Below the pieces are notes generated by a model. It did not search any database and was not told where the DNA came from. It worked only from the letters and a program-made list of their open reading frames with translations. A program made the translations under genes and the position numbers. A DNA stretch of 64,000 nucleotides, taken from the NCBI RefSeq assembly GCF_038025025.1, contig NW_027117348.1, positions 434,001 to 498,000 on the forward strand, in the 5' to 3' direction. Source of the DNA: Phyllosticta citribraziliensis. Lineage: Eukaryota. Of this stretch, positions 32,975-61,401 are shown in pieces (position 1 is the first letter of the stretch; each line of letters begins with the position of its first letter).

Positions 32975-33743
32975 TCACTCGGGCTGGTGATCGTCGGCGT
33001 CGGCGTCGGCGTCTGGGTTGGCGTTGTCGTTGGCGTTGCCGTTGGCCAAGACGTGCATGAACACCTCGAGACGGCCCAGACGGACGGCGAGAACGTCGTT
33101 TGCGGCCTGCAGGCGGCGGCGGTCGAGCTCGCGCTCGCGCTGCTCCTCGCCGAGGGCTGCCCAGAGGTCTTGGATTTGCCTGTCGCGGTCATCGGGCGAT
33201 CTGGGCCGGAGAACAGGCGACCTGTGTCGGAGAACGGGCGACATGGACCGGCCTCTCTCGCTGCGTAGGGGGGATTGACTTCGTCCACGCAGCACTCCAC
33301 GGTGGTGGTCATCATTGGGGTTCTTCTGAATCCCACCACCGTAATACTCGCCCCAGTTCCCGCGAGGGATCTGGGGGCACTCGCGACCCACATGCTCACC
33401 GGTGTGGCAGTGGTAGCACTCCCGGGTACATCTGCGCCAGCCGACGTGTTTTCTTTGGCCACAGCGGTAGCAGGCACCCTGGCTTGGCCTAAGAGACTAC
33501 ATGTTAGCAAGCTTCATGTGGTAGGGGTAGGGGTAGAGGCAGAGAGGTAGAGAGGTAGAATGGTAAGTGGTAGAGTGGGAGATGGTGAACTGACTGATAT
33601 GGCCTTCTGTCGCGTTCGACATAGTGACCCTTGTCGCGGCCATTATCCTTGTTAGGCCTTCGCGGTGGCTGGCCGCCGCCACCGTGGGCACGCGCGATGC
33701 GCTGTTCGGGAGGGAGAAGTCTTTGGACGACTCGAGCTGCCAT
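32975..33743 (-). CDS. Orphan 220-aa protein with tandem CCHC zinc knuckles and a coiled coil (family member A)
   Basis: Exon 1 33743-33595 (MAARVVQRLLPP...GGGGQPPRRPNKDNGRDKGHYVERDRRPY), phase-2 intron 33489-33594 with GCTAAC branch site, exon 2 QPSQGACYRCGQRKHVGWRRCTRECYHCHTGEHVGRECP...QIQDLWAALGEEQRERELDRRRLQAANDVLAVRLGRLE. Confidence 0.75.
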
Positions 33744-34059
33744 TTTGGCGAGCTGGAGTTTGGGGTGTGGAGGCGGGGAGGTGTGCAGAGGATGGATGAG
33801 AGGAGATGAAGTGGAGAGGAGGAAGAGGAAGAGGAAGAGGGAGAGAAGAACATCACCAGCCGAGGGCAGCACCAGAAGGAGCGGAAAAACCGGGAGCCGA
33901 GCGAAAGCAGCAGGCGCGTCCATCTGGGTGGTGTGGGTGGCAGAGGAAGGAAGGCAGAAGGCAGAAGGCAGCCTGCGGTGGTCGTCGTGCTTTGGCGGTC
34001 GAATGCTCCACGTACTGTACCCATCCTCAATCCTCCATCTCCACTCGCCCACCCCCAAA

Positions 34060-35054
34060 ATGCCTTCAACAAGTCCCTCCGGCTCCGGCCTCCCCCGAGT
34101 CAATCCTCTCGTCCTCCCTCCCTCCAGATTCCAATGGGGTGCTGGCCCCTCGACCCAGCCAGAAAATGCCGAGTCGGCACAACAACAGCAGCGGCCTGCG
34201 AGCAAGCGGCCAAGGCTTGAAGTCGTCGAGCGTGACGAGCCGAGTGACGAGCGTATGTCTCTCCATCTGGCTCTTTCAAGCCTTTCAAGGTTTCTCTCAC
34301 TGACTGACTGTATGGGACAGGCGATCTCATCCGCAAAGACCTCGCCGAAGCTGAAGAACGCGCCGAGGCATACCGGCTCCTTGCTCAGAAGTACAAGAGA
34401 GAGCGAGACGACGCTCGGAGAGCTCTGAAGCTTCGAGACGAGATTGAGCGGCTTTCGCCCTCTGAGCAGGTCCACGCAGGACCAAGTGGTGTTGGTGCCT
34501 CGCGCCCAAGCCGAGCCTTGCAATTGCAAGAAGACGTTCGGTCGACCTCGGGTTTGCCGATGCTGGGAGCCTCACAGCCAATTCCAGCCCCGGTACTGCA
34601 GGAAACAAGTACTGCAAGCCCAGCGTTGGCAGATGTGAGTCGAGACGACGACCGCGAGAACGACCCTTTCGGGTCGAAGCGTGCCGATACGCACAAGAAG
34701 CCCACCGGCATGACCGAATACGGGACCAAGCTTCCGGTCTGCTTGCTCCATCCTCGTCAAGGCAAACTGGGCGCTCAGGAGTTTCAGCGTCAATACCCAG
34801 AGCAATGGAGAGAGGTGTTGAAGGAAATCAGAAATTGGCATCGCGCTGGTAACCTCCCACGCTGCAAGAGTTGGATCAACACCAAGAGCAAACAATGTAT
34901 GCACACCTACATCAAGCTCAGGACGAAACTCAACTCTGAGCTCTGGAACGACGACGAGCCGCACAAGCGGGAGTGTCAGCAATGCGCTGCGAAAGAACAG
35001 TATTGCGTCGTTCTGGGGCCGAATGCCGACGAGCTCATCGTTTTGCCGTCGTGA
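34060..35054 (+). CDS. Orphan 308-aa protein with a coiled coil and Cys-rich C-terminus
   Basis: Exon 34060-34252 and intron 34253-34320 (GTATGT...CTGAC...CAG) splice in frame to ORF 34518-35054. Helical LAEAEERAEAYRLLAQKYKRERDDARRAL; C-terminal C-x10-C...CQQC-x6-C; SKRPRL may be an NLS. Confidence 0.7.
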
Positions 35055-35069
35055 TCTTGGAAAGGCATG

Positions 35070-35316
35070 GCCTTCTCTGAGGAGTACCATCATCACACCA
35101 CTGTGGTGTTGCGAGATCTGCATCTGCAGGAGTGTGGTCTGAACGAACTACAAGTCTGAGTCTTTTCTCAGAAGCCCCCCCATCATACGCCGATGATGGA
35201 GGAAGCTCTGCCCCGGCAGGTGAGTGCTCTGAATGAGCCACGAGTCTGAGACTTTTCTCAGAAGTCCCTCGTCATACCTTGATGATGGAGGAAGAAGCTC
35301 TGCATCTGCAGGAGTG
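35070..35316. repeat. Degenerate ~88-bp tandem repeat (2-3 copies)
   Basis: gtctgag(t/a)cttttctcagaag...catac...gatgatggaggaag..ctctgc occurs near 35155 and 35244; ctgcatctgcaggagtg occurs near 35118 and 35300. Confidence 0.65.
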
Positions 35317-40844: not shown

Positions 40845-42040
40845 AGGCCGTGGCACAGAAGTCTCTCTTAGCATCCCCATTCGTCAATGACTTGAGAGAG
40901 TCCCTCTCTTAGCATCCCCGTTCGTCGACGACTTGAGAGAGTGCCTGGTGTATTTGAACGAGGCCCACACCCGTGGCACAGAAGTCCCCCTTTTAGCTTC
41001 TCCATTCGTCGATGATTTGAGAGAGTGCCCAGTTTATTTTGGACGAGGCCCACACCCATGGCACAGAAGTCTCCCTCTTAGCATCTCCATTCGTCGATGA
41101 TTTGAGAGAGTGCCCATTTTATTTATTTGGATGAAGCCCACACCCGTGGCACAGAAGTGCCCCTCTTAGCACCCCCACCGGCGACGACTTGACAGAGTGC
41201 CTGGTTTATTTGGACAAGGCACTGAAGTCCCTCTCTTAGCATTCCCGTTCATCGACGACTTGAGAGAGCACTTGGTTTATTTGGACGAGGCCCACACGCG
41301 TTTGTTGACGACTTGAGCGAACGCCTGGTTCATTTCAACGAGGCACAGAAGTCCCTCTATTAGCATTTCCGTTCGTTGACGACCTGAGAGAGTGCCAGGT
41401 GTATTTGAACGAGGCCCACACCCATGGCACTGAAGTCCCCCTCTCTCAGAGCATCCCATTCATCAACGACTTAAGAGAGTACCTGGTGTATTTGAACAAG
41501 GCCCACACCCATGGCACTAAAGTCCCCCTCTCTCAGAGCATCCCATTCGTCGACGACTTGAGAGAGTGCCGGGTGTATTTAAATGAGGCCCACACCCGTG
41601 GTACCAAAGTCCCCCTCTCTCTCAGAGCATCCCTGTTCGTCGACGACTTGAGAGAGTGCCTGGTGTATTTGAACGAGGCCCACACCCATGGCACTGAAGT
41701 CCCCCTCTCTCAGAGCATCCCATTCGTCGACGACTTGAGAGAGTGCCTGGTGTATTTGAACAAGGCCCACACCCATGGCACTAAAGTCCCCCTCTCTCAG
41801 AGCATCCCATTCGTCGACGACTTGAGAGAGTGCCTGGTATATTTGAATGAGGCCCATACCCATGGCACTAAAGTCCCCCTCTCTCAGAGTATCCCATTCG
41901 TCGACGACTTGAGAGAGTGCCTGGTTTATTCGGTGAGGCCACAACCCGTGGCACATAAGTCCTTCTCTTGGCATTCCCGTTCGTTGACGACTTGAGAGTG
42001 CCTGGTTTATTTGGAGGAAGCCCACGCCCGTGGCACAGAC
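40845..42040. repeat. 87-bp minisatellite, about 15 copies including truncated ones
   Basis: Unit gtatttgaacgaggcccacacccatggcactgaagtccccctctctcagagcatcccattcgtcgacgacttgagagagtgcctggt; period 87 bp (41401 to 41488). Homogeneous from about 41400 to 41930, degenerate and shortened at the flanks. Confidence 0.95.
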
Positions 42041-42365
42041 TTGGAGATGCCTTGCTGATTCAGAAAGAGTGTGTGATCGGGAGGGTTCCGGAGGATTCCC
42101 GCAATGTGTTCTGGACGTAGCAGGAACCAACCTCAGACGAGACAGCCAAGCAGCATTCGATGCGTCGGGTACAGACGAGGCACAAGGGGAGCGGAGCATT
42201 CGTCAGCCCGATGGCAGAACTAAAAACAAGCCATTCATAATCCAATTCCCATCGTCCAAAACGTGTGGATCACTCTCTTTTTGACATCGCATTCGTACAG
42301 GGGAGAAGAAAAGCAGAACCCCTCCCTCCCTCCATGTGGTTTTTCGCCCATCGCCCAGCGCCAAT

Positions 42366-42367
<2 letters not shown>

Positions 42368-42396
<29 letters not shown>
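42368..42396. repeat. (AC)n microsatellite
   Basis: About 14 AC units, just downstream of the aconitase stop. Confidence 0.9.
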
Positions 42397-42397
<1 letters not shown>

Positions 42398-42485
42398 CAA
42401 GAGAAGCCTAATACGTCGGTAAGTCAATCTCGCGATGATGTCTCTTTTGTCGTCAATCCATCTTCTACTCCAAGATCCCACCGTC

Positions 42486-44978
42486 TCATGCCTCCGGCTG
42501 CTTGTTCGCATTGGCAGCCAACAGGTTCAGCGCGGAGCCCGCCAGGATGAAGCCGCACTGGTCGCGACTCAGCGTGTGCTTCGTCTTGACCTCGAAGCTC
42601 TCGCCGCTCCTCTTCTTGACGAGCAGCGCAATCTCGCCCTGTCCGCCCTTCTTCAGCGTGTCGTGCAGACCCTTGGTGGCAACCTCGTCGCACGCCTCGA
42701 TGCGGTCGTAGTCGGCCTCGTTGACAAAGGTGAGGGGAACGACGCCCTGCTTCTTGAGGTTGGTCTCGTGGATGCGAGCAAAGGACTTGGCCAGGATGAC
42801 ACGGCCGCCGAGGTAGCGCGGCTGCAGGGCAGCGTGCTCGCGGGCCGAGCCCTCGCCGTAGTTGTGCTCGGCGACGACGAGCCACTCGGCGCCCTGCTGC
42901 TTCCAGCGCTTGGCCAGCTCGGGGATGCCGCACGACGAGCCGTCAAAGTCGTAGGCCGTGTTGGTCTCGCCCGTTGCCGCATTGACGGCGCCAATGAGCG
43001 TGTTCTCGGCGATATTGGGCAGGTGGCCCTTGTACTTGAGCCACGGGCCAGCTGCTGAGATCGTGTCGGTCGTGCACTGTCCCTTGACTTTGTAGAGCAC
43101 GCGCAGGCCAGACAGGTCGCCGGCTGGGAAGGGCGCGAATGGCTCGAGTACGGCAAGACGCGACGACTTGGGGTCAATCTGGACCTCAACAGAAGGATCA
43201 GGCTTGCCAGGGGTGGGGAGGAAGTCGGGGTTGCCAATCTCGAAGCCAGACTTGGGCAGGTCAACACCAGTTGGTGGTGCAAACCTGAAGGGCTCGCCCG
43301 AGGTGGTAGGGATGGAGTCGGTCATGGGGTTGAAGGTGGTCTCGCCGGCGTAGGAGAGGGCCGTGACGAGCTCAGGAGAGGCGAGGAAGTTCATCGTAGC
43401 GCGGTTACCGTCGTTGCGGGCAGGAAAGTTGCGGTTATACGAGGTGAAAATGGCATTGGCCTCGCCCTTCTTGACCTCGTCGGTGCGCTTCCACTGGCCA
43501 ATGCAGGGGCCGCAGGCATTGGCGAGGACGATGCCACCGGCGGACGAAAAGGTGTCGAGCGTCTCATCGCGCTCGAGAGTTGCCCGAATCTGCTCGCTAC
43601 CAGGGGTGATGAAGAAGTCGGCCTTTGGCTTCAAGCCAGCCGCCTGGGCCTGCTTGACCAAATGCTCCGCACGGGTCATGTCTGCGTAGCTCGAGTTTGT
43701 GCAGCTGCCAATCAAGCCAGCGCCAAACGTCTTGGGCCATCCCTTTTCCTCGACAGTGTCCTTGAACTTGCTCAGAGGCGTCGAAAGATCGGGGGTAAAG
43801 GGACCGTTGATATGAGGCTCCAGCTCAGACAAGTTGATGGTGATGAGTTGGTCGTACTCGGCATTTTGGTCGGGACGGAGGAGGTTGTGGGGACCCGGAG
43901 AGGAGGCGATTGTGCTGGCAGCGGTGGCAATCGATTCGCGGTAGGTAGCGGCCAGGTAGGGAACGTGTCCAGAGGAGAAGGGGAATAATGAAGTCGTTGC
44001 GCCGACCTCTGCGCCCATGTTGCACACGGTGGCCATGCCGGTGCAGTTGAGGGACTCGACGCCAGGGCCGTGGTACTCGATGATGAATCCGGTACCGCCA
44101 CGGACGGTGAGCTTGCCGGCGAGGGTCAAGATGATGTCCTTGGGGCTTGCCCAGCCGCTCAGCTCGCCCTCCAGCCTGACACCGAGAATCTTTGGTGCCT
44201 TGAGCTCCCACGGAGCATCAACGAGCGCGTCGACAGCGTCGGCACCACCGACACCAATGGCAATCGCACCGAGACCTCCGGCATTCGGCGTGTGGCTGTC
44301 CGTACCCAGCATCATCAAACCCGGTGCACTGTAGTTTTCCAGGACGTTTTGGTGGATGATGCCCGCGCCGGGAGGCCAGAACTCGATGCCGTACTTCTTG
44401 GCCGCGCTCTCCAAAAAGTCAAAGACCTCCTTGTTGCCCTGGATCGAGCGTGGCAAATCCGTGTCTGCGCCGCGCTCTCCGACAATCATGTGGTCGCAGT
44501 GGATCGAAGCCGGGACGGCCGTCGATGGCAGACCGCACGACATGAATTGCAGCAGAGCCATTTGCGCCGACGCGTCCTGCATGGCCACGCGGTCGGGCTT
44601 GAGCTTGAGGTTTGCAATTCCGCGAATATCCTTGCCATTGTTGGTGCCGGTCAAGAGCGATTCCTCGGGGTTGTCGAGATGCGAATAAAGAATCTTTTCG
44701 GCGAGAGTGAGCTGCCTCTCGGGTCCGAGGACGCGGCGGACTTCGTGTAGTCTCTTGAGAAGCTTGGGGTAGGGAGGAGTGCGCGAGGCAACGTCGAATC
44801 CCGGGGGAGGTTTGGGTGCGGTGGCGGTTGCGAGATGTCTTCTGCTTGGGAGTACGCGGGGTGAGGTCTGGGACGCGTTAGTGGTGATTGAGTGGTGCGA
44901 CAGGTCTCTTACCTTTGCGTTTGCGAGCCTGGCCGCCCTCAAGGCCTGCGCCCGCATGGTAATTAGCTGGGCAGCCAT
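42486..44978 (-). CDS. ACO2: Mitochondrial aconitase-family protein, Aco2/AcoB type (homocitrate dehydratase-like)
   Basis: LTLAEKILYSH, DRVAMQDASAQMALLQFMSCG (Aco2-type rather than Aco1 CQDATAQ), IHCDH, TDSHTPN, LIGSCTNSSY, NACGPCIGQW, SYNRNF, TTDTISAAGPW, NYGEGSAREHAA. Probable 45-nt intron at 44868-44912. Confidence 0.9.
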   Translation of the reverse strand: MAAQLITMRAQALRAARLANAKVRDLSHHSITTNASQTSPRVLPSRRHLATATAPKPPPGFDVASRTPPYPKLLKRLHEVRRVLGPERQLTLAEKILYSHLDNPEESLLTGTNNGKDIRGIANLKLKPDRVAMQDASAQMALLQFMSCGLPSTAVPASIHCDHMIVGERGADTDLPRSIQGNKEVFDFLESAAKKYGIEFWPPGAGIIHQNVLENYSAPGLMMLGTDSHTPNAGGLGAIAIGVGGADAVDALVDAPWELKAPKILGVRLEGELSGWASPKDIILTLAGKLTVRGGTGFIIEYHGPGVESLNCTGMATVCNMGAEVGATTSLFPFSSGHVPYLAATYRESIATAASTIASSPGPHNLLRPDQNAEYDQLITINLSELEPHINGPFTPDLSTPLSKFKDTVEEKGWPKTFGAGLIGSCTNSSYADMTRAEHLVKQAQAAGLKPKADFFITPGSEQIRATLERDETLDTFSSAGGIVLANACGPCIGQWKRTDEVKKGEANAIFTSYNRNFPARNDGNRATMNFLASPELVTALSYAGETTFNPMTDSIPTTSGEPFRFAPPTGVDLPKSGFEIGNPDFLPTPGKPDPSVEVQIDPKSSRLAVLEPFAPFPAGDLSGLRVLYKVKGQCTTDTISAAGPWLKYKGHLPNIAENTLIGAVNAATGETNTAYDFDGSSCGIPELAKRWKQQGAEWLVVAEHNYGEGSAREHAALQPRYLGGRVILAKSFARIHETNLKKQGVVPLTFVNEADYDRIEACDEVATKGLHDTLKKGGQGEIALLVKKRSGESFEVKTKHTLSRDQCGFILAGSALNLLAANANKQPEA

Positions 44979-45252
44979 TGGAGACGTGGAGGCGAGCGTG
45001 ATGCTGGGGCGGTGACAGTCCAAAAATTCGATGGGGGAGCGATAGCGGAGAAGAGCTCCAGAGTAATTGGGCCGCTGTCATTGGCAGATCTCATCTTGGC
45101 GCGACGCAACCATACAAGGGTATCTATTTCTATGTTGAATGCGACAACATCATCATCGTTCGCTCGCGTTGAATTCCTTTTCTACCAGGCCTAACTCCGC
45201 TTCCTTGCATCAACGTTCAATTCATCTCTCGTACAACTCCTCAAATGCTCCT

Positions 45253-47319
45253 CTACGACGTGTGCACATCCGCCTTGGACATGGCCTCCGTCACCTTTTC
45301 AATCGCGGGATCAGCCTCCTGCTTCTTCTCCGCTCCCTCGACGCCAGCAGCGGCCTTGGCTGCAGCCTTTTTGGCGGCCTTCTTTGCCTTGTCCTTCTCC
45401 TTGGCGGCCTTCTTTGCTGCCTTCTTCTCGGCCTCAATCTGCTTTTGCCTCTTGACCTCCTCGCCACCAAACTGCTCCCTCCACTCTTGCTCCTTCTCCG
45501 GCTTGATCTGGCTAAACAGGTATGATGCCTTGCCAATCTTGTGACCGGGCTTGATGATGCCAGCCTTCCACTCATCGGGAATGTGGGGGACCGGGTCGAC
45601 ACCGAGCTGCTGGAAGATGCCGAGAATAGGCTCTCCCTTGTCGTTGATGCCACCCCGCGCAGTTGCGGGCATGTAGGGCTCGATGACGCTTCCGAGAAGA
45701 TAAATGTGGTTGAGGGCCAGACCGACCACCGCTGCGCAGCGCTCCGGCTCCTCGGTGAATAGTCTGTTGTCAAGTTTGTTGTCCTGCAAGAGCTTGTTGC
45801 CAAGGGCGGAAATGTGCAACGCGCTCACGAGACCGGCTCTCAGCTTGACATTCTCCAGCCAGTTGTTGTACGTCTGGAGAAGCGTGTTGAGTTCCTTGTT
45901 GTAGTTTTCGAGATACTCGTCCGAGTACTTGGTCCAGTCGGGGACAACTAAACAATGTTAGTCATGAAAGACAAACTTTAATTTGAACTTACCAGAGTCG
46001 TATTTGGCCGCAACAAACTTGACGACACGGTTGACAAAGTTGCCCAGGTTCTTCAACAGGTCATTGTTGTTGGCGTCGATGAATTCGTTCCACTTGAACT
46101 CCGCGTCGCCGCTCTCTGGTCGCCTGGACAAGAGGTAGTATCTCCAGACATCAGAAGGAATGCCAGTGTCCTTGGCGTTGTTTCCAAATACGCCGATGCC
46201 CTTGGACTTGGAAAATTTGGTGTCCTCGTAATTCAGGTACTCAGTCGTGGAAAGATGGTGCACCTTGGTCCAGTTGTCTCCGGTACCGAGCTGCGAGCCG
46301 GGGAAGATGATGGTGTGGAATTGGACATTGTCCTTGCCCATGAACTGGTACAGCTTGACGTTGTCGGGGTTCTTCCACCACTTCTCCCACTGATCCGTGT
46401 ATGTTGCCGTGATGGAGACGTAGCCAATGCACGCGTCAAACCACACGTACATGACCTTTTCCTCGAATCCGGGCAGAGGGACTGCCGTTCCCCACTTGAG
46501 ATCACGCGTGATGCCTCGAGGCTTCAAACCCTTGTCGATCCATGACTGCGTGATGTGGATGCAATTGGCTGACCATTTGCCTTCGGTGCTGGCCTCGTTG
46601 AACCACTCGATGATCTTGTCCTTCAATTCGTCCAGGCGAATGTAAATGTGCTTCGTCTCGCGCTTCACTGGCGCCGCGCCATCCAGCTTGCAGCGGGGGT
46701 TGATAAGGAAGCCGGTAGCCTTGACCTCACCGGGAGGCTCAGGCTCATCCGCATTGGTAGGCGCCTTTGCTTCCGGCTCGGGCTCCAGCGGATCCAAGAG
46801 GTTGCCGCACTTGTCGCATTGGTCTCCGCGCGCGCCAGGGTCGTGGCAGATGCTGCACTCGCCCTCGACGTAGCGGTCCGCAAGGAACGAGCCGTGCTTC
46901 TCGCAGAATGGCTGCACCGTAGTCTTCTCCTCCAAGTAGCCATTCTTGTAGAGCTTGAGGAAAATGTCTTGCGCGATATCGGTCTGTTCTTTTGTCGGCG
47001 TGCGGCCAAATTTGTCAAAGCCAATGTTGAACCACTCGTACACCTCGGCGTGGATCTTGTGGTACTTGTCGCACAGCTCTTGGGGAGTGAGGCCCTCGTC
47101 AATCGCCTTGGTTTCGGTCGCCGTGCCGTACTCGTCGGAGCCGCACACGTAAAGAGTCGGGTGGCCGCGAGCTTTGCAGAAGCGCGCAAAGACGTCGGCG
47201 GACAGCACAGAGCCGATGATGTTGCCCAAATGAGGGATGTTGTTGACGTAAGGAAGCGCGCTTGTAATGAGGATATTTCGCTTGCCCTCTTGGGGCAGAA
47301 TCGGTTCGGTCGTCGCCAT
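45253..47319 (-). CDS. MES1: Cytoplasmic methionyl-tRNA synthetase
   Basis: [19 protein letters not shown] (HIGH-like), [45 protein letters not shown] (KMSKS-like), LGNFVNR; one intron near 45950-45991; Lys/Ala-rich C-terminal tail. Confidence 0.95.
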
Positions 47320-47354
47320 CGTGTGTGGTGGTGGGGTGGAGGATGCTGTGGAAG

Positions 47355-47361
47355 TGACTCA
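47355..47361. promoter_or_regulatory. Gcn4/CpcA-like element upstream of MES1
   Basis: TGACTCA 36 bp upstream of the MES1 ATG. It is close enough that it could fall within the 5' UTR. Confidence 0.5.
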
Positions 47362-47730
47362 AATGCCCCGCTAACAAGCTTCCATGATCTGATCTGATCT
47401 AATCTAATCTACCGCCTTTGTCCCCAAGCTTGCATCATAAATTTTGATATTCATAAGCACAATTTTTCACACTCTCTTTCACGTACGACCATAGCAGGTA
47501 GAAAACTCGGAACCCCGTCCGCTCTTCCATAGATAAGCTACCTTGCGGCCGATTAGTAGTTGCGTGGGTGACCAGCAGCGAATCCCGGCTGTTGTACGTT
47601 TTGCATTTTTTTGCTTGGTCACAGCGTGGGTGATGGCTCGTGTCAATGCTTCGATACGGGCCGGAGCGGATCTTTGGCTCAAGGATGGACTCAGGAATTA
47701 ATTTCAAACTTTTGCCTCTACCAGACATCA

Positions 47731-49079
47731 CTACGTCTGTGGTGAGCACGAATTCAGAATCTCCCTCACCATCTCCTTCGACTTCAATGGCACCGCATTA
47801 GTGACGCACCACCTGTCCTTCAACGAGCTCTCCGCCAACTTGTCGAGCTGTTCATCTCCTCCAATGCCAAAATCCGCCAATCGTCGGGGCATGCCCAACT
47901 CCCTAAAGATTACGTCGAGGCAGTCTGCCAAAGGCGCCTCGCCCCGACGAAAACCATGCTGATTGAAGAGTTTGGCAGTGACATCGACGCTGAACAGCAC
48001 ATCGAGAACAATGTGCTGCTTGGCGGGAATGTCGACAAGCGGCTCAACACTCTGTTGATCGAGCCCTGTGCCGGGGACGCCCTCGGCCGCATGCTTTAGA
48101 TTGAAGGCACACACGGCAGGCAGGAGAATGCAGCTTGTCTCGCCGTGGCCGACCCCCAAGGGACCGAGCTGGTGACCGATGCCGTGGCTGGCACCGAGAG
48201 GAGCGCCCGCTTTGCAGCCGGCCATTGCATCCACGACGCCGAGCTGACATTGCAAGCGCGCTTGCGTTTCGTTCAGGTCAGCTTTGGAGCGCAAAAGACC
48301 GGAGACGAGCTGACGCAGACCCGAGGATGCGGCGCGAGCTGCGGCTGAGGTGCAAAAGGGCGAGCAAATGGTTTCAACGCAATGGTCAATGGCGCGAACA
48401 CCGGAGGACAGCCAGAACCGTAGGGGTGTCGTCGTGACTAGCGCGGGGTCGAGGATAACGAGGCGAGGACCAAGGGGAGCGCCAGCGTGGCCGAAGCCGT
48501 GCTTGTGGTGAGTTTCGTCATTGGTACCACCAGCATGATCAGAAAATTCGCCGCCAGAGAGAGACGTTGGAATGGAAATGATGGGGATAGTTGGGCTGGC
48601 GAGATCGGGCCTCGGGATTGAGGGGTCTCGGTTGTTGGTTAGTTTGAGGATGGATGGAAACTCGGTCGCGTTGTTGGCGAGAGCCTGGAGAAGATGGGTG
48701 AGCTTCGCCAGAGATGCGGGATGACCCAACGTACCAGTGTGACAATTTTGGCAGCGTCAATCAGACTTCCTCCGCCAAGGGTCACGAGCAAATCGGCATC
48801 GACCTGCGTCGTCTCCTTGGTGACCTCAATACACTCAGACCATAACGTATGTGGCGTCATTCCGTTCCGAACGCCGACGACTTTATCGCCTAGCGCGTCT
48901 TGAAGTTTTCGAACGACGTTTGTTGTCCGTGCAAGGGTTCCCGAAGCTAGTATGTAGACCCTTGACGCCTTGAAGTCTTGCTCGACATGCTGGGCGCAGG
49001 CTTGCTCGAATGGGAGGCCGTGGCTGACAAAGGGATGGCTCTGCCCTTCGAAGGGTAACGTAACGGTTTCCTGGGCCAT
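47731..49079 (-). CDS. Iron-containing alcohol dehydrogenase / maleylacetate reductase-like protein
   Basis: VTLGGGSLIDAAK, intron near 48685-48733, IPTSLSGGE, PRLVILDP, SGVRAIDHCVE, GASHGIGHQLG, HGETSCILLP. Confidence 0.88.
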
Positions 49080-49203
49080 GGCAAGGTATCTCTGAACAGT
49101 TGCGTCTTGGTGCAAGTTCGTATGAACCCCATGGGGTTTAAGAACCCCACACTCGGCAAAGTTCGTCCGCCCAAGCCGACCGGCTAGATCCGAATCCCGG
49201 GCT

Positions 49204-49856
49204 CTACCATACCATTGATGCCAGCTTCTTCGCCGACCAGTATAAGCCCCAAAAAGCCACTGACCACGTCAAGAGGATCGCAATAATTGTTTTGCCCTGC
49301 AAATCGAAGGCATCGGTAAAGTGGAGTTTTGCCATTTTGCGGTGCTTCTTCCTCGTGAACCATTTGGCCTTGGTGCGGCGAGTCATTTCAATCTGGCCAT
49401 GTACGCCAGGGATGCTTCCGTCAGCTCCGCCCGCCGTGCCGGCACATTCCTTTTGCCATGTCGAATCGCTTGGGTCCTGATAAGGTTCAGGATCCAACCA
49501 CTGCCAAGGCGAGACTGTTGACCACCAAGAAGACGCAGGAGGCGGATGTTCGGCTACACGGTAAGCGCGGTCGCGGCGCTGGACGAAGAAGAGAGAGAGG
49601 ATGAATGAGGTAAAGAGGACTGGGGTCAGGATGACCTGGACTGGGTTAGCAGTGTAGGAGCAAAAGTACCAGAGTACCAGAGGCAGACTTTTGTCAGGGT
49701 CGACACGGGATGATCCGACTCTTTTTGATTGTCGTCGGGCGAGGGTAGAGGTGAAGGCAACGGTGCGCTGGCAAGGTCCTCGAAGGGATCGGGCTTCTTC
49801 TTGCGCTTCGACGGAGTGGTGGGCCGGGAGCTGGTGGTTTGGGTTGAGAGTGACAT
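49204..49856 (-). CDS. Hypothetical membrane protein (199 aa)
   Basis: Exon 49856-49689, intron 49636-49688 (GCTAAC branch site), exon 49635-49204. Two hydrophobic segments (VILTPVLFTSFILSLFFV; IIAILLTWSVAFWGLYW) with WLDPEPYQ and RKKHRKMAKLH..DAF between them. Confidence 0.75.
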
Positions 49857-50733
49857 GATGGCTGGCAAAGCGCCCGAAATTGAAGCGGTGCAACACGGTC
49901 AAGTCAAGACGAATGTTGCATCATGTGCGTACGGCGGGCGCGCGGAGGAGTCGATATTTGTTTGGTGGTGAGCTGGCGCATGTTTGCAGCGGAGACGGAG
50001 GTCAGCGGCCTGACGTCAGGCTAGGCAGCGGCTCGGGCTCGATAGCGACCCGAATCCGAGCTGGAGGCTGGCAGGCAGACGAGATGCTGCGCTGGTGTTG
50101 AGACAAAAGTCTTGCGTCGGCGTTTAGTTTGAAGCCCGTTGCAGCCAGTTCCTGCGGCCGGCTCTTTGTGTCAGGTCTCCCTTGCATTCGTCATTGTCGA
50201 CCTCAGTTGTCTGACCACCGAGTCATGGATTAGTCGACTGCCTCGCCCGGTCGCCCAACCAGTGGATGATGAGCTTGATCTTTTCGTGAATGAATCCGTA
50301 ATCAGTCTGGTCTCTGCCTCGCTGCTGTGGTTCGGGCTGTGTTGGTGGCTGGATCGTCGAGGCGTCCCATCAAAGACCAGACAAGGGACCGAACCGGTGG
50401 AGTCGTCGAAAATTCAAGCAATCATGACAGGGAACGCCCATCCTTCGACCAGCAGTCAATTCTGGGACAGGCATTGCATTGCGTCTTAAACAACAAAGAC
50501 GCGGCGGGCTCAGCTCGTCACTTAAGGGCGACGCCGCCCCCGGAATTAGTAAACCAACGCCACGGACGAAATCCGTCGGACCCTGCCGTCTCACTGTGCT
50601 ACCACCTGAGCCCCTCGCCCACACCACGTCTTACCTGTTCGCTCTTCGTCCGCCTTTTTCGAGCAACCGTCCTTCTCCACTTGTACTCTTGATATCTGTG
50701 TCCTGAATTCTGTGGCGGGTCCAGTCGTTCGAA

Positions 50734-53405
50734 ATGGCTCGCTCTGCAACGCCCGACAGTGGCCGTATTCGGGATGGTGGCATCCGAAAGAGGATGCGCA
50801 AGGGAACCCACAGCTGTTTTGAATGTAGGTCGCCGTGCCCTTTTCTCCCCTTTTCTTCCATGCTCCGGGCGAATATGGACGAAATCGTCGTCTTTTCGCC
50901 TGCTGTTTACTCATTTGGGCCTGCACTAACCGTGACTAGGTCGTCGACGAAAGATTCGTTGCATCTACTCCGACGACCATCCAGGTCAGTGCACCGAATG
51001 CTTTGCCCGTGGCTCTAGGTGTGTAGACCAAGAGCACGCGGAGAGCGAAGCCGTTGTCGACAACCGCAAAAACCTTCGTGAGAGGGTTGCCAAACTCGAA
51101 GCTCTGGTCGAGGCGTTGCTTGACGACAAGACCTCCAAACACGCCGCCGATGCATTGCGGGCTCTGGGGCAAGACATTGCCGTCACTCCCCCATCCTCCG
51201 ATGGCCCATCTCATGTCCAAGGATCTCAGAAAGATCCAGCCCCATTCCTGTCCATGTTCAACAATGACGTGGTATGCCCTTTCTGCCCGTATCTTCGACA
51301 CGTGCTGACTTTGACTAGTTGCGTCGAGCTGAGGGCAGAGGCACCGTGACATGCCCGATGGAGACACAGGACTGTGATGCCTCTCAGCCCACCGAGACGC
51401 ATACCACCCAGGTGTGTGACGTCGAGTTTACCGGCATAGGTGCGCCGCCTACCAATGGCGACACGATGAGTGAAGGCCGCAAGTCCAAAGCGAAAAAGAC
51501 TCGTGAGACGTTACTTTCAGGTCTTCCGTCCGGGGAAAAACTCGAGTCCGCCCTCACTACGAACGACGACTGGTGGCGTCTATGGCGCTACAAAATCCCA
51601 AGCATTGCCCGCGGCGACGACCTGCAGGCCTTTGCTCGTCGTGTAGTTGCAGACGGGTCCCCGCCTGAAGCTGCCGTCCTGCTGCTGAGCGTCGGCATCG
51701 CTTTGGATTCTGATGATCTCAACACGTCTCTTGCTCTCATCGACGCTCTGATTGTTTCTGACGACGAATATGGTGCCACGCTTCAAGGTCTGGAATGCAC
51801 GATCCTCATGTCCAAGTGCTACTCTGAAATTGGACAACCACGTCGAGGTTGGATTGCGGTGCGAAAGGGTCTCGCGTATGCGCAAATACTGGTATGTGCT
51901 ACGCCGCCTGCAGAAACTCAGCTGACAATCCGCAGGGCTTGCATCGCAGCCACAGCGCGTCGCCAGAATGGAACACCATTTGGTGGTCATTGTACACAAC
52001 GGACCGCTTCTTGAGCCTGCTGCTCGGCCTTCCGTACGGCATTACAGACACTCATTGCGACATGTCCGTTTTGCCTTCGGAAACCGAGGGAGAAGACCTG
52101 AAAGAATCCACTGCCAAGCTTGCCGTCCTCTCCGGCAAGGTAATTGATCGAACTCAGGGCGTGGGAGACCTCTCCTTTGCGTCGGCTCTTGAGCTAGATG
52201 ATGAACTCGACACCATCACGTCCAATCTGTCTGAGAACTGGAACGAGGAGATGCCGCTTTCTGGAAGCAGTCCAGACTGCAAGAGGATGATCACTCTGCG
52301 CGAACGCTTGCTGGTACACATCTGCTCACAACAACTCCGCATGTACCTCCATCTTCCCTTCATGCTCAAGCTTGCCTCGCTGAGCTCGAGTCCTACTGGC
52401 TGTTCCAAATTCGAATACAGCAGAACGGCGTGTTTTGGCGCTTCCCGCAAGCTGTTGGAGCTGTACAGAGTCCTCCGCACGAGCAATGGCCAGCCCCTTT
52501 ACGAGTGCAAGGTCATTGATTTTGTTGGCTTCACCGCCGCCGTGTTGCTCTTCCTCGGCCTCTTGGGCTACCGCCGGCTGGAGTCCAAGACAGGCGACGC
52601 GCACACGCAAGCCGTTCAAGACGAAAACGACTGGCGCATCATCGAAATCACCATGGACATTTTCCAACGTGCCTCGACCGAGAGGGGCGGCAAGGTCGCC
52701 GCGCAATCGCTCCGCGTCCTGCAGCAGCTCAGCAAGGTGCGCGACTTGACCATGAGCGGCGAAGACATCACCTACTACGAACGCGTCGCCATTCCGTACT
52801 TTGGTACCATTTCGGTGCAGCGAGGCAAGCGGTTTCACCACGTCGCCAAGAACAAGAATGAGCCAGTCGTCACGACCAGCGACGAATCGACTAGCACCTT
52901 CAGTCAACAATCAAACGGCATGCCTCCGCCGGCCGCCGCGACAGGTGGCCCTGATGCCTTCGACATGACTCCCGCCTATCCCGGTGCGCCTGCTGCCTTT
53001 CCAAACAACGCCGCCGCTCGTACGCCCAGCAACTCAACCATCAGCACGCCCCCGAACCCCATGGTCGCGTACGACCCGTTTGTCCCAAGCACAGGCCAGT
53101 GGTTTTTCCCCGGCGTGGCGACGATGGGCATGCAACACGGCGCCAGCGACAACACGGCCACCGCCAACGCCAGCATTCCAGCTGGCATGGGGCCAGGGTT
53201 TGGCGGGCACGCAACCGGAGCAGCAGCCAACTGGACCACGAGCGAGGACGGGCTGGACAATTTGATTGGTGGCTCGCATGTGCAAGGCGGGCCATGGATG
53301 AGCTCTAACCTCAACATGGGCATGGGCGGCGGTGCCATGGACTTGGATCAAGATTGGGCGTGGTTCTGGGGCGGCAACACGACGAGCGAGGTCTCCCCTC
53401 GGTAA
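50734..53405 (+). CDS. Zn2Cys6 transcription factor
   Basis: RKGTHSCFEC|RRRKIRC-x8-CTECFARGSRC across intron 50825-50939; coiled coil LRERVAKLEALVE; fungal TF middle region WWSLYTTDRFLSLLLGLPY; YLHLPFM; acidic/aromatic C-terminal tail. Further introns near 51272-51318 and 51892-51935. Confidence 0.92.
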
Positions 53406-54086
53406 TGACGCCGTCCAGCGGTGCGCGCTGATGTTGGTGAGACTGACTGATCTTTTGCGGTTATGGCGTTCTGGGATTTTGGTAATTGGGAATGGGGGTT
53501 CGCGGCGTTGATGGACGGTATGGCTTGGAAGACTTGATACCAAACTCACGACTCAGATACTATCGCTTCTCTCCAGAGGTTAATGCAGCACCACGCGTCA
53601 ACGGCCGTGGCAGTACACGCAAAGCACTCGAATGCTCCCTAGTGCCATGTTCACCGGACGTATGGAGCCTCCGCATGGCTACTCCTGTCAAGGGGAGGGA
53701 GCATTCCCAAGTCAGCTTACGCTGAGAGCACGAAGCCTCCCTGGCCCATCATGAGCGTCTTCATAGGCCTGGTTTGAGTAAGATATCACAGTGGTTGTCG
53801 AAAGAAATACGGCTTCCTGGCAATATGAATGCGCTTAGGGAGCATCCATTCACTGCTACAGTGGCGCTTAGGGAGCACTCATGCGCTGGTGCAGCCAGAT
53901 CCAGGGTGTCTCATTTGCGGGAGGTGGGGTGGGCAGGCGCGGAAGGTGCGCCTGCGCGAGGTCTTTGGCACGTCTCCGCCCCAGAGCCCTCCAACTCCAA
54001 ACATCATCCATCGCGTTTTTCAAGGTATTGGAAGCACAACGCCACGCAGCTGAATGGGGCTTCTTTGCTGACGTTTTCATGTGCAG

Positions 54087-55173
54087 ATGGACCCCTCAAG
54101 ACCTCCCGATCGCCCTGGCGATCCCAACTCCTCTGCCTCACGGCGTGCGCACCTCACCCATCCCCAAATCGATGAAAAGATGCTAATTTGAGCGACAGAA
54201 AACACACCACAACAACCACCACGCCAAGCAGTTGGTGGGGCCCCCGTGGCCAGACTCGGCTTCCGCGCCCAGGCAGATCTTGCGGCCGCTCGTGCAGCTC
54301 GAGGTAAGAAACCCATTTAATCACACGGCCCAAATGGACACCTGCTGACCACATGATTATAGAGGCAGTGATTGAAGCGGCCCACCAATGGGCAGAAGCT
54401 CGGGGTATCCCGACCCAGCGCGTGCCTGCGTACGCCTTTATCGACCCGCAGGCAGAAGCCCAAAGGCAGGCCGCCATTCGGGAAAACGACCGTCAGGTCA
54501 AGCTTTACGCTGCGAGGAATAGGCAGTCCGCCGAGGCTGATCGTGCTGCCCGTTTGGCGGCCGCTACTGCAGCTCGAGGTAAGAAATTTACTTAATCACA
54601 CGGCCCAATTGAATAAATACTGACCAGATCATCACAGAGGCCCAGGCCAACGCGCTCTATCAAGACGCGGCGGCTCGTGGGATCGAGCTCCACCGCGTGT
54701 CTGCGGTCCCCCTTGCCGACCCGCAGGCAGAAGCCGAAAGACTGGCCTTGCTCGAGGAAAACATGCGTCGAGTCCGCGAAGGACTCGGAGTGAACAGGAC
54801 CCAGTCCAGTTCGAGTAATCACGGGAGGGCCTCGTTCATCCCCCCACCGTTCGAGCCTCTTCGCCCCGCGACGGTGACGCCGCCCCAAGCCGCTCCCGAA
54901 CCTCGACCATCAGCGGCGGTCACCCGGGGCAGACAAACCCCTTCGGCGGTGAGAGGCCCCTCTCGTGATGAGGCTCACGCTGAGCACAATGGTCTTCCCG
55001 CTCGCCCTCAATCGTCCTCGAAAGACGTGAAGACTGTGCCAGCAACGAGCAGTTCTGGTGGTGCGGAGAGCCTCACAAGCCCGCATGCACCCCGAGAGAG
55101 CGAGTCCGACATGATCGGCCGCGAGTTTCCCATTGCCGACACTGGGCTTCTGAAGAGCAAGTGGTCACGATGA
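54087..55173 (+). CDS. Orphan 304-aa protein with a duplicated exon (DPQxE family member D)
   Basis: Exons 54087-54144, 54199-54303, 54363-54578 and 54638-55173, all joined by phase-1 introns in one open frame. Predicted 5'-UTR intron 54025-54086 ends directly at the ATG. Repeat ARGI...RV.A....DPQAEA.R.A...EN.R occurs twice. Confidence 0.7.
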
Positions 55174-55749
55174 GACCGAGAAGACATTCACGATGAGACC
55201 GAGAAGACAAAGGACTACACCGACCTCCAACGTCTTCAGTGCTGCTGCTGCCACCACCACGAGCAACCTCTCCAGCGCAGCGAGTGGCCATCAAACGGCC
55301 GAGTCGTAAGTACCGTAGTCCTACAGAGGTTGACTTACCAGAGTTTCGCGCCACAGAACAGGCACGGACGAGTAGAGCTAGATACTTGTGAAGACTAGTC
55401 TTTGGGACGTGACATGGAAGATACATGTAGCTTAGCTTGAGAGTAGATTCAATGGGACCATTTGAATGCTGTGCTTGCGGACGATGTTTGAGCTCTTCGA
55501 TTCGTGATGAATCAGATTTCGGTGCGTGAGCGGGAGAGAGGAAGCCGAGCCAGTCCTCCGTGTCCTCGGCCAACCACTGAGCCATCACACGACTGCTCCT
55601 TCTGCTGCTGCTGCTGGTCAACGCTTGCTGTCTTGCCCGCCATCGAACCTCTCCCCTCCTCCTCCTCTCTTCCTCTCCTCTTCTCCCTCACACCCTCACC
55701 ACCCCCCTCCCTCCGCGCCCTCTCCTCGCGCAATTCTCTTTCGCCATAA

Positions 55750-56507
55750 ATGGAAACACGACACGCTCCTCGCCCGGCTCCGGCCAAATCTTCAAGTGGT
55801 GCCGGCGGCCGCCCACCACGAAAGCCAGACAACAACGGCCGCAAAGGCCAAGGTCACTACACCGAAGATGGCCGAATTGGCAAACCTGTACGCCCGTACA
55901 TGTAAGTCACCTCACAAAAGCTCGCCGAATTTCAATTCAATCGGTCTGACGTTGTCCCATTAGACCAAACGCGGGCAAATGCTTCCACTGCGGAGCGAAG
56001 AGGGACAAGGACCACAACTGCAACTGGCGCAACTGTCACGAAGCATGCCAGTTCTGTCACGCTCGGGACCACCAGGGGGTCGAGTGTGAGCGCTGCCCCA
56101 ATCCTGGCGAGCACTACGGCACAATTCAGAGACTCGTTGAGGCTCAGAAGGAAGCCGGTGTGCTCAAGCAGAGCGCAAGCGCGCCACACCGTCCCACCAG
56201 CGGACAAGATCTCGGCAACGATAGCCAGATGACGCCCAGCGGGCAAGATGAGATCGCCGACCTGCGTCGGGTGGTCCAAGACCTTCAGCGGCGTTCCGAT
56301 GCCCAGCAGGAGCGTTCCGACGCCCAGCAGGTCGAGATCCAGGCCCTCCGCGATCGGGTCCAGGAGCTCGAAGCAAGACCCAGGGCCGGCCCCGAGGACA
56401 TCGAGTGGGACAGTGACGAGGTCGACGAGAACCTCAAGCGCTTGGGCAGTGAAAACCGCGCTGAGAAGATCGGTCTCCGGACCGAAGTGCTCAGTCTCCA
56501 ATCTTGA
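55750..56507 (+). CDS. Orphan 231-aa protein with zinc knuckles and a coiled coil (family member B)
   Basis: Exon 1 55750-55901 (…GAGGRPPRKPDNNGRKGQGHYTEDGRIGKPVRPY), phase-2 intron 55902-55963 (GTAAGT...CTGAC...TAG), exon 2 IPNAGKCFHCGAKRDKDHNCNWRNCHEACQFCHARDHQGVEC...EIADLRRVVQDLQRR...IQALRDRVQELE. Confidence 0.78.
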
Positions 56508-58706
56508 AACTGGCAAGTAAACTCTTTTTCGATTGAGACGATGGTTCAGCTATTCGCTACCTACCAAGTGGCTTGTATGCCAAGATGGATCCTTTCTTTT
56601 GAAAGGCCCACGAATCGTTCATGGATGGACGAAAGATCTCTTTCCGACCCTTCGGACCCGAGAAGCGTACCACCAGATAGAATGCCAATGCGATCGTTGA
56701 TGTCGAAGCTATTGTACCTGCCAGTGATACGCGTATGCGCTGAACAAGTGACCATGTCCCGTTCGTTGCAATCACTCACCTCCGTGACTGTGATGTATCC
56801 AGACCCTTCTGCCTCCACCGACAGTACCTCCCAATCTGAAGACCTGCTCCTCTTTCTTTGCGTTTCTGTGCTCACAACCCTCATTCCCAACCAGAACCCT
56901 CTCGTTGTCTTGTCCTCGCGTGGGAAATGAATCCTTTCGATGCCCGAAACCCCCACTTTCTCCGCGCGTAGTCAAACTGAAGCGCTCATGAACGGTCAGA
57001 GAGTGTGATTGCAGCAAGCCTTGAGATGGCACAGTCGCGGGCCTGCAAAACAATCGCACAAGTCTGACTGTGTAGCTAGAGGGCCACAACTCCACGCACA
57101 GCATCGACGAGCGAGAAAAAAAAAAAAAAAAAAAGGGACACAATCTCAATCCACACTCCCACCCTCCCCATTATTGCTCAGAATCCACCCTCCCATGAAT
57201 TACATAAGCAAGGGGGCCCGTGAGTAACAAAATTTTTACTGTTCTCTCGCATTATAATCTGCCTCCTTATATTTTACAAAATCTTACACTAAGCCTAGGG
57301 AGGTTGAAAAATGGCGAGCGCGCGCTCAGGAGCCTAAATAACCAGGGGGTAAAGATATACTCTCTAAGGCACGGGGGTCATAAAGGGGTATTTCGGTGCC
57401 GGCGTAGTCCATTTCCAGAGCGCGGTGATAGAATCTTAGATAACCAGGGGGTAAATATGGCCGAAGACGTGCGCGCGTGAGTGAAAGTATATTGGTAGTG
57501 GTGGTGGTGTGGTTTTGGTAGTGATTACGAGAGAACTTAAAAATAATAAACGACTTGCCTAATCGAGACTAGATATAGGGAGGGTGTATTTAGTTTAAGA
57601 GGGTGGATGGTGAGCGGGGTGGTACAATGTTGTGTGGATTGAGAATATAACCCAAAAAAAAACGCATGATAAGCCCGACAGAGTGAGGACTGCGACGAAA
57701 TGAGCTTTTCGGCATGAGTAGAGCCCTGTTGAAGAGCATCAGCCGCAGTGATGGCCCCAAAACGACGATACCACGCCGCCGATGACTTCCAAACCGCCCC
57801 ACAAGCAAGCCCGCCAAAGTTTTGCTACATAGCCCAAAAAACGCGGTTCGTTCCTCCATAACCGCCAGTGAGTTGGGGCGCCGCGGCGCAGTATGACGCT
57901 GCTTCGGCTGCGAATGATTCTGCCAGGCGCCACCCGGTAAGCTGGCGGTTACTGTATGATGAGTTCGACCGACCCTCGGGTCGGACGGTAGACGTAGGGC
58001 GCGGGCTCCGGACCGTGGCTGAACTGTTTTGCCATTCTTTTTTGCTGTTTTTGCTGTTTTGGCGACAACCAAGAAGCGAGAAAGACTGGGGGAAGCAAGC
58101 ACCGCCGTTTGTTTTGCCGATTCAGCCTTCCCTTGCTATCATAGAATGTAGCGGAAGGGTGCGCTCGTTTTCAAGTTCGGTTGGCCCTCGCCGGCGGTTT
58201 TGCTCGTGTTCCTGGCTGGGGCTTGGAAGCATTTATGTTTCGAACGAAGGATTCTTCAACGGCAGCGGGCTGGGTCTCTTTTCGTAGTAGAAGGCACTGG
58301 AAATCAAGAAGTGGTCGTCAGGTTTGGGAGACTTGGAGTGGCAGGTCACTGGTCTTGGTGCAAATTGCCGCAACGAAGTCATCACTGCAGGCATCAACTC
58401 CATGCGCATCATTGCTGCGGAATACCATCGATTTGACTTTCATGACTATGGACTCCAGCATTAAATGCACATCGGGGGTATGACCTTCGAAACAAGTACA
58501 TACCAGGTTGATTCAACCTAAACTCGTGGATTATCCACACTCGGCGCACAGCCTGTCCAAGAATTAGCATCATGACATCTCAATCCCTGGCATGTTTTTG
58601 CTTCTCACCTACTCACTGAACATGGTGCGAATACCAATCATGTGGTAACAGAAACTCGAGCACGTGTCGCAATGGCTCTTTCTCGTGGCAGTCCGTGAGG
58701 GACTGC

Positions 58707-59496
58707 TCACACTCGGTCTGCGTCGTTCGGATCGTCGCCCTCGAACATTCGTCCTTCGACCACGTATCTGCAAAGCAGCAAGTATTCCGCAAATTCCTGC
58801 GCGAAGGCGTCCATGGTCCTTCGGTGGACATTTTCGTCGTGAAACTGGGGAATCTGTCGCAGATCCGCGACCAGGGCATCCATATCTACGGCGAGGTCCT
58901 CGAACTGCCCTTGGATATACCTCTGTTGTCTCTGTTGACGATTGCTGATCGCCTGGGCTTCATCGACTACCGCGACCAGATCATTGAAGACCTGATCCAT
59001 TTGCGCCCAGGCATTTCGTTCGTGGAGTGCGTCCTGCATACGGTTGTCAATAAACTCGGCAAATGCCCGCTCAGCTTCGCGTGCATGCCGCTCGAGGTCA
59101 TCGACCTCACTCTGGAGTCTACGCTCTGCGTTGCGTGCGCGGTCTCGGTCTTGCTGTAGGTCAGCAGCAGCTTGACGCACCAACATGGCGTTGGCCTGCT
59201 CCAACTCTCTTACTCGCTCGGATTGATCCTCGAGCACTCGCTGTGTAGCACTAGACCGCTTTCGCGATCTCCTTTGAGCTCCGGAGCTCAGTCTGAACAT
59301 CAAACGTCAGTAACGAGCATAGAATCGTGGAAGGTCCATCATACCTTGACCGAAGAGTCTTCTTGCTCGGGCGCTCGACGTAATGTCCGAGTCCCTGTCT
59401 GTGGCTGTTTGGCTTTCGAGGCGGCCGGCCACCACCGCCGGAGGAGGACGGTGCTTGGAGGGGGAGGAGTTGTCGGCGCATTCTGATGCGAGCCAT
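58707..59496 (-). CDS. Orphan 245-aa coiled-coil protein (family member C, no knuckles)
   Basis: Exon 1 59496-59345 (MARIRMRRQLLP...SSSGGGGRPPRKPNSHRQGLGHYVERP), phase-2 intron 59293-59344, in frame with the helical ORF 58707-59303. Confidence 0.72.
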
Positions 59497-60993: not shown

Positions 60994-61401
60994 ATGGCTC
61001 AGCAACACGGCCCTCCGCATTCTCTTCCTCCTCATGCGGCTTCTGCTGCTGCAGCATCACCGCGTACGCGTCTCGCTCCCACCCTCAAGTCACGGCTATG
61101 CTAACCCTGAACCACAGAGCCAATCATGCCCACCCCGCCAGGTGACCAGGCCCAACGGGCCAGACAGACAGAACGCGTTGCCTTCTGGGCGACGCAGGGA
61201 GTCGAGCTGTTCGATGTCTCGAATGGACCGTTGTCAGACCCACAACAAGAACGGGTCAGTGTCTTCTGCCAGGCGGAGAACAAGCGAAGACTCCCATTCG
61301 ATGAGAGGGAGAGCCTCTTTGCCGATACACAATTGCGAAGTTCCCACAACGCTTTGGAGCCAGACGGTCAGCATGGCCACTGGATATGTGGTGAGAGATG
61401 A
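60994..61401 (+). CDS. Orphan 117-aa protein (DPQxE family member E)
   Basis: Predicted 5'-UTR intron 60932-60993 (62 nt) ends at the ATG; phase-1 intron 61064-61117 (54 nt). Both lengths equal the matching introns of the gene at 54087. Contains QGVELFDVSNGPLSDPQQE...AENKRR. Confidence 0.6.

Follow-up and report, generated by a model that had tools for sequence, protein, structure and literature searches.

In nucleocapsid proteins and in Lin28, CCHC-type zinc knuckles bind single-stranded nucleic acid at its exposed bases. In Lin28 a cold-shock domain is followed by two knuckles, which bind GGAG in pre-let-7; longer runs of consecutive knuckles are found in Air1/Air2 (five) and in CNBP/Gis2 (seven), and some of the Air2 knuckles bind Trf4 in TRAMP. 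Here we analyse three genes, A, B and C, in a stretch of 64,000 nucleotides (the window; contig NW_027117348.1, positions 434,001 to 498,000 of the forward strand) from Phyllosticta citribraziliensis, a citrus-associated Dothideomycete of the order Botryosphaeriales. A and B encode tandem CCHC-type knuckles behind an N-terminal motif that all three genes share. On what we regard as a modest balance of probability, the three are old paralogs that arose by DNA-level duplication within a small, fast-evolving fungal family, in which the tandem knuckles grip single-stranded RNA or DNA, a helix oligomerises and the N-terminus adds contacts or docking. The family is undescribed, its proteins being labelled 'hypothetical', 'uncharacterized' or 'CCHC-type domain-containing' at source. 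An earlier note, made from the sequence alone, had taken the genes for intron-bearing paralogs of a lineage-specific RNA-binding family with CCHC-type knuckles, possibly a domesticated Gag-like module. The paralogy is borne out by the exon similarities, the shared phase and place of the introns and the deposited proteins. The main outcome of the analysis is a negative one: no retroelement lies hidden in A, B and C, and domestication of a Gag protein is without evidence.

Gene A (32975..33743, minus strand) encodes 220 amino acids in exon 1 (33595-33743, 149 nt) and exon 2 (32975-33488, including the stop codon), separated by an intron of 106 nt (33489-33594). Gene B (55750..56507, plus strand) was modelled as 231 amino acids, with exon 1 at 55750-55901 (152 nt), an intron of 62 nt at 55902-55963 and exon 2 at 55964-56507 including the stop codon, and gene C (58707..59496, minus strand) encodes 245 amino acids, with exon 1 at 59345-59496 (152 nt), an intron of 52 nt at 59293-59344 and exon 2 at 58707-59292 including the stop codon. 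Each first exon leaves two nucleotides over and the introns are therefore in phase 2; their donors are GTCAGT, GTAAGT and GTATGA in A, B and C, branch-like CTAAC or CTGAC sequences are present and every intron ends in AG. Across the window, which has a G+C content of 53-62%, introns are likewise short, with GT..AG at their ends and branch sites resembling CTAAC or CTGAC. When re-read from the sequence, the coordinates, exon 1 lengths and intron phases agree with those given in the earlier note, and the reading frames of all three genes are intact. The same note had called the genes dispersed, a term that applies in a relative sense, A lying 22 kb away and B and C being convergent neighbours with 2.2 kb between them.

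Two of the three models coincide with deposited proteins. Spliced A is identical, letter for letter, to P0007 ('hypothetical protein BC567DRAFT_265352 [Phyllosticta citribraziliensis]') and spliced C to P0009 ('uncharacterized protein J3D65DRAFT_606055 [Phyllosticta citribraziliensis]'), with exon 2 matching at 100% in both cases. The ortholog of B is P0008 from P. citrichinensis (212 amino acids), which bears the UniRef label 'CCHC-type domain-containing' and has the same exon-junction sequence as the B model; identity between the two is 38/50 (76%) in exon 1 and 144/159 in exon 2. The C-terminus of the B model (56440-56507, ...ENLKRLGSENRAEKIGLRTEVLSLQS) is unlike the deposited end of P0008 (...ENLKRSR), which could reflect a differing gene model or a genuine species difference.

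The motif common to the three first exons is GGGG-x-PP-x-x-P...GHY-x-E. It reads GGGGQPPRRPN...GHYVE in A (33615..33683, minus strand, residues 21-43), GAGGRPPRKPD...GHYTE in B (55798..55866, plus strand, residues 17-39) and GGGGRPPRKPN...GHYVE in C (59374..59439, minus strand, residues 20-41), and the first-exon peptides quoted earlier are all present as written. When the six exon translations were compared with the window by tblastn, exon 1 of C matched exon 1 of B at E=5.3e-10 and exon 1 of A at E=4.0e-7, the next match being at 0.037, and exon 2 of A matched exon 2 of B at E=1.6e-14 (29/86 identical in BLASTP, E=2e-13). The window thus holds three copies of the N-terminal motif and two of the knuckle region, and the similarity among A, B and C is far above chance. 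At the DNA level the loci resemble one another only where exon 1 codes for the motif (65 nt at 72% between A and B, 28 nt at 82% between B and C, none between A and C), which indicates that the duplications are old; together with the common intron phase, it points to old duplication at the DNA level and not to retroposition or recent transposition. A weak tblastn match at 60190-60231 (E=0.12) was considered as a fourth copy and taken as chance, its three-frame translation containing neither knuckles nor motif.

The double knuckle of A (33377..33472, minus strand, residues 56-87) has the form C-x2-C-x4-H-x5-C, a three-residue linker and C-x2-C-x4-H-x4-C. That of B (55980..56087, plus strand, residues 57-92), whose pattern was counted on the ortholog P0008, has a first unit four residues longer, the same length of linker and an exact C-x2-C-x4-H-x4-C as its second unit. 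The first unit is thus non-canonical in both proteins, by H-x5-C in A and by its greater length in B, and the exact spacing that had been noticed in the second unit is found in both. The Cys/His pattern is absent from C, which had likewise been described as lacking knuckles.

The earlier note had proposed a tBLASTn or HMM search across this genome and its relatives; a profile search of a protein library turned up 12 further relatives. A profile built from A, P0008 and C was searched without a length limit against 1.84 billion representative proteins, and at E<=1e-3 it returned 15 proteins, the three queries and 12 others, of 112-533 amino acids and with E values from 1.7e-9 to 7.8e-4. The 12 relatives are clusters at 50% identity, matched mostly over profile positions ~15-100. 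That so few matches came from a library which must be rich in knuckle proteins indicates that the profile recognises the whole module and not knuckles generally. In the alignment the parts follow in the order of a Gly run, PP-x-x-P-N, G/S-H-Y-x-E, C-x-R-C-G...H..W..C-x3-C-x2-C-x-T-x2-H-x-G-x2-C-P and an aromatic [WF][YW]-x-x-[YH]-G. When searched with simple patterns, 12 of the 15 members (all except C, P0011 and P0016) have the full double knuckle, ten at least one exact C-x2-C-x4-H-x4-C and 11 the upstream N-terminal motif. The members are very divergent, with 21-39% identity to A, and their tails vary, with many RS/SR/SP dipeptides (14 in P0015 and 17 in P0020), long predicted stretches resembling coiled coil or Lys/Glu-rich ends. 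Four relatives, P0010, P0015, P0017 and P0020, end in Lys/Glu-rich tails with up to four repeats per protein of a hydrophobic-K-x-E/D motif, which resembles the SUMOylation consensus; A, B and C have none.

Other searches added little to this set. Word-based searches with the exon 2 proteins, with the 'longer' and 'shorter' length classes left out, returned A itself (one of 143 candidates), the B ortholog (one of 150) and C itself (one of 634), and neither the word-based search for C nor the profile search revealed another relative without knuckles. Two scans of metagenome contigs with smaller alignments gave 595 and 113 pattern-matched stretches, none of which was confirmed by tblastn. Literature searches, judged by their listings, gave nothing on this fungal tandem zinc-knuckle family. 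Pfam gave no match for the exon 1 peptides of A, B or C, and no Pfam family spans the N-terminal motif and double knuckle in any of the 15 members, in which only coiled-coil families match single tails.

Transcription was assessed for the part of the window from 44001 to 64000, which covers B and C with A outside it, using aligned contigs of two runs, X1 and X2, which come from two studies and carry no record as RNA. In neighbouring genes these contigs skip many short GT..AG or CT..AC intervals and thereby behave like transcript assemblies. In contigs of both runs the joint 59292->59345, which skips 52 nt with CT..AC ends, is exactly the intron of C; this gene is expressed and correctly spliced. 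For C the predicted intron is thus confirmed in RNA-type contigs of two studies. The bin 56007-56673, which contains most of B, has no cover in X1 or X2, a result without bearing on the expression of B. Approximately 100 nt downstream of the stop codon of C, one run skips a further 56 nt with CT..AC ends (58552-58607, minus strand), possibly an intron of the gene's 3' untranslated region. Upstream of C, RNA-type contigs also cover 59497-62567, a region in which no long reading frame is convincing: from exon 2 of C one contig extends across the spliced intron to 60931, and another spans 60992-62567. These contigs may mean that C has a very long 5' leader, that a non-coding transcript overlaps here or that neighbours have been merged.

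The predicted structures are consistent with a compact core between flexible and helical parts. In an AlphaFold2 model of A based on the 15-row alignment, residues 1-50 have predicted local distance difference test (pLDDT) values of 51-58 and are probably disordered, residues 51-90, which contain the knuckles, reach 76-92, residues 100-139 are a linker of low confidence and a single helix with values of 90-96 is predicted at residues 148-200. This long C-terminal helix (33038..33196, minus strand) is a candidate coiled coil, and an RS/SP-rich stretch (residues ~116-148) lies between it and the knuckles. In B a candidate helical or coiled-coil stretch was read from the sequence (QDEIADLRR...QELEARPR; 56244..56384, plus strand), which gives only weak coiled-coil noise in Pfam, e.g. 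HAUS-augmin3 at E=5.7e-4, below the cutoff of that family. C, folded alone, is predicted to form helices at residues 45-196 and 204-229. The coiled coils announced by the earlier note are partly upheld, by long predicted helices in A and C and, only modestly, by a crude heptad score.

Structural searches found few neighbours. Foldseek of the A model against the Protein Data Bank (PDB) gave nothing at E<=0.001 and listed only the Lin28 knuckle domain (3trz_A and 2li8, with E values of 4.8 and 6.4), and Foldseek against BFVD gave nothing at the same threshold. In a wide search with VIA-align, A matched coiled-coil fragments by its long helix only, with Z scores of 5.5-5.7 that are below the meaningful level for helices. 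Among PDB sequences, phmmer with the relative P0015 placed Lin28 at the top (2cqf_A, E 0.6-1.4), and the family profile found its best match in 6t61_A, labelled 'Gag polyprotein', over the two knuckles only (E=0.0064). The ESM Atlas gave only leads below 0.9, to zf-CCHC-like clusters.

Comparison with the described systems places the family near several of them and within none. Like Lin28, which is the top or sole listed match in phmmer (P0015) and Foldseek (A), it has two adjacent CCHC-type knuckles with 'C-P' after the second; unlike Lin28, it lacks a cold-shock domain, its linker is of three residues (that of Lin28 is longer), the spacing of the first knuckle varies, it carries an N-terminal motif, an aromatic patch and a C-terminal helix of its own, and the matches to Lin28 are non-significant (E 0.6-6). 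Tandem CCHC knuckles, a short basic linker and a small basic protein are also features of retroviral and retrotransposon nucleocapsid, among which 6t61_A, which we take to be Gag of equine infectious anaemia virus, is the nearest; however, no capsid domain and no polyprotein is seen in the 15 members, and A, B and C lie next to neither pol nor long terminal repeats (LTRs), contain an intron and have housekeeping neighbours. No RRM, cold-shock domain or AIR2-like_ZnK4 match was obtained from Pfam in A, B, C or the 15 members. The absence of an RRM match, and of reverse transcriptase (RT) in the surrounding open reading frames (ORFs), separates the family from ORF1p of LINE elements of the RRM and CCHC type; the presence of two units per protein, with no AIR2-like_ZnK4 match, separates it from Air1/Air2 and CNBP/Gis2. 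The exact spacing of the second unit is that of zf-CCHC proteins generally, and the RS/SP-rich stretches of A and its relatives recall SR proteins of the 9G8/RSZ type, from which, as from other zf-CCHC proteins, the family differs in having neither RRM nor RGG box and in a hidden Markov model (HMM) score under the Pfam cutoff. The family therefore resembles a tandem-knuckle nucleic-acid binder but by its features is not a member of Gag, LINE ORF1p, Lin28, Air1/2, CNBP or the RRM-bearing SR proteins.

In the account that we favour, the conserved unit consists of a disordered peptide GGGG-x-PP-x-x-P-N...G-H-Y-x-E, two CCHC-type knuckles three residues apart and an aromatic patch [WF][YW]-x-x-[YH]-G. 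The double knuckle offers eight Cys/His ligands, probably to two zinc ions, and would grip single-stranded RNA or DNA in the manner of retroviral nucleocapsid and Lin28; nucleic-acid binding by the family is probable by analogy, from the known role of CCHC knuckles and the nearest solved analogues (Gag nucleocapsid and Lin28). Through its C-terminal helix the protein would form dimers or oligomers and hence be multivalent, and the basic disordered N-terminus could provide non-specific contacts with nucleic acid or serve as a targeting or docking signal. Behind the conserved unit the tails vary and include a long helix as well as stretches that are RS/SP-rich or of low complexity; in A and several relatives the RS/SP-rich stretch hints at a role connected with RNA that is nuclear and regulated by phosphorylation. 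C has kept the exon of the N-terminal peptide alone, joined to a long helical rod, and either lost the knuckles or gained a different exon 2. The alignment sets 'SGAQRR' of C under 'CG(A/Q)(K/R)R' of the first knuckle, which is a weak hint of knuckle loss.

Several observations weigh against this account. The Pfam zf-CCHC model (PF00098) scores only 13.4 bits (E=0.084) on exon 2 of A, under a gathering cutoff of 20.8, and in none of the 15 members does it reach E<=0.01; the family approaches zf-CCHC by the spacing of its ligands and not by its HMM score. The matches to solved knuckle domains are all marginal or non-significant. Zinc binding may not persist in every member, since two cysteines have been lost from P0016 and the second unit of P0011 is a variant one. 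The heptad signal is weak, a crude score being reached by five (A), 12 (B) and 12 (C) of 200 shuffles, and the best heptad window of B lies further downstream than 56244..56384. Finally, exon 1, with the N-terminal motif, is the less conserved of the two exons between the B orthologs, which argues against a tightly constrained docking peptide.

This last point bears also on the idea that exon 1 encodes an autonomous, undescribed docking or targeting module that defines a new fungal family, drives a compact two-zinc double knuckle with a three-residue linker in most members, was reused in C with an unrelated helical rod and lets two classes of protein compete for one partner. We regard this idea as possible but doubtful; if true, it would mean that a filamentous fungus has reused a module at the level of the exon. 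The knuckles might instead act mainly as a protein-protein adaptor in an RNA-processing complex, as some of those of Air1/Air2 do with Trf4, the RS/SP stretches then marking a nuclear role linked to splicing or decay; such stretches do occur in A, and RS/SR/SP dipeptides are frequent in several relatives (P0015 and P0020 above all), but there is no similarity to Air2-type knuckles or to an RRM, the knuckles are two and not five and no partner was identified, and we consider this unlikely. More doubtful still is a role for C as a knuckle-less regulator, a partner or dominant negative that uses its helices to pair with A or B, or else competes for the binder of the N-terminal peptide. C has kept the exon of the motif, with the length of that of B and the phase of A and B, is transcribed and spliced, is predicted to be almost wholly one long helix and lies close to B; on the other hand, no significant similarity links the helical parts of the three proteins (the tblastn matches between B and C at E=0.013-0.06 look like coiled-coil composition), and no second knuckle-less relative was found by the searches described above. 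A complex prediction for the helical tail of B with C scored 0.00, in a single job without controls, and is uninformative.

A retroelement ancestry would have the module descend from the nucleocapsid of an LTR retrotransposon or from LINE ORF1, captured as a host gene that then gained an intron, and we hold this to be very improbable. Its attraction lies in 6t61_A, a tandem-knuckle region with a similarly short linker and the best solved match of the profile, and in a few Gag entries among the non-significant BFVD rows (E>=1.2); an E value of 0.006 over ~35 residues dominated by Cys and His is, however, obtainable from any tandem CCHC pair, and 6t61_A has no counterpart of the N-terminal motif or the aromatic patch. 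Among 69 stop-to-stop ORFs of at least 130 amino acids in the window, including those within ~5 kb of A, B and C, none gave a Pfam match to RT, integrase, protease or gag, and no pair of LTR-like direct repeats flanks any of the three genes, in agreement with the earlier remark that no pol or LTRs are nearby. No capsid domain (Retrotrans_gag or Ty3_capsid) was detected in A, B or C (Pfam E<=1) or in the 15 members (E<=0.01), none of which is of polyprotein size. The neighbours are an MFS transporter, an Atg1-type kinase, a Rad5-like SNF2/RING helicase, a P450, a peroxidase, an aconitase, a methionyl-tRNA synthetase, an iron-type alcohol dehydrogenase and a fungal transcription factor. With neither capsid domain, pol nor LTR-like repeats, and amid housekeeping genes, the suggestion of a domesticated Gag-like module comes down to a generic resemblance between knuckles and is left without support. 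The least probable of the alternatives is that A, B and C are orphan genes drifting with little or no function, their motif being the slowly decaying trace of a duplication. The motif exon is indeed only 76% identical between the B orthologs of two Phyllosticta species, the word-based searches found almost nothing outside the genus and disorder is predicted for much of each protein; yet the eight-ligand module is retained in 12 of 15 members that are otherwise very divergent from A, the frames of the three genes are intact and C is expressed with correct splicing.

If the account of old paralogs with a nucleic-acid-binding double knuckle is right, the family represents a compact and uncatalogued fungal arrangement of CCHC knuckles, in which an N-terminal peptide peculiar to the family is combined with two knuckles three residues apart, an aromatic patch and a helix that oligomerises, and it would be a candidate for domain libraries. 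Phyllosticta includes citrus pathogens as well as endophytes, and an RNA-binding family enriched in the genus could bear on differences in lifestyle, although nothing in the present analysis shows so.

Some further features of the window were recorded. The gene just upstream of B (~53800-55410, plus strand) has introns at 54145-54198, 54302-54360 and 54577-54635, as seen in RNA-type contigs, and an open frame of at least 309 amino acids rich in Ala, Arg and Gln; it contains an internal duplication (54282-54499 and 54557-54774, 71% identical), and the two of its stop-to-stop ORFs that were scanned (53726-54175 and 54613-55173) gave no Pfam match. A tandem array with a period of ~87 nt occupies 40860-42000, in families of 6-12 copies that are 60-93% identical to the reference copy; it overlaps long open frames on both strands (41309-41995, plus strand, and 41579-42202, minus strand) and could be either a minisatellite or coding sequence that contains repeats. 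Short dispersed repeats in the same orientation lie upstream of B and of C, pairing 53932-54090 with 60838-60997 (72% over 163 nt) and 53787-53882 with 61417-61513 (71% over 100 nt). RNA-type contigs of both runs also contain a joint 53857->61603 with 13 extra letters, which probably derives from related repeat copies elsewhere.

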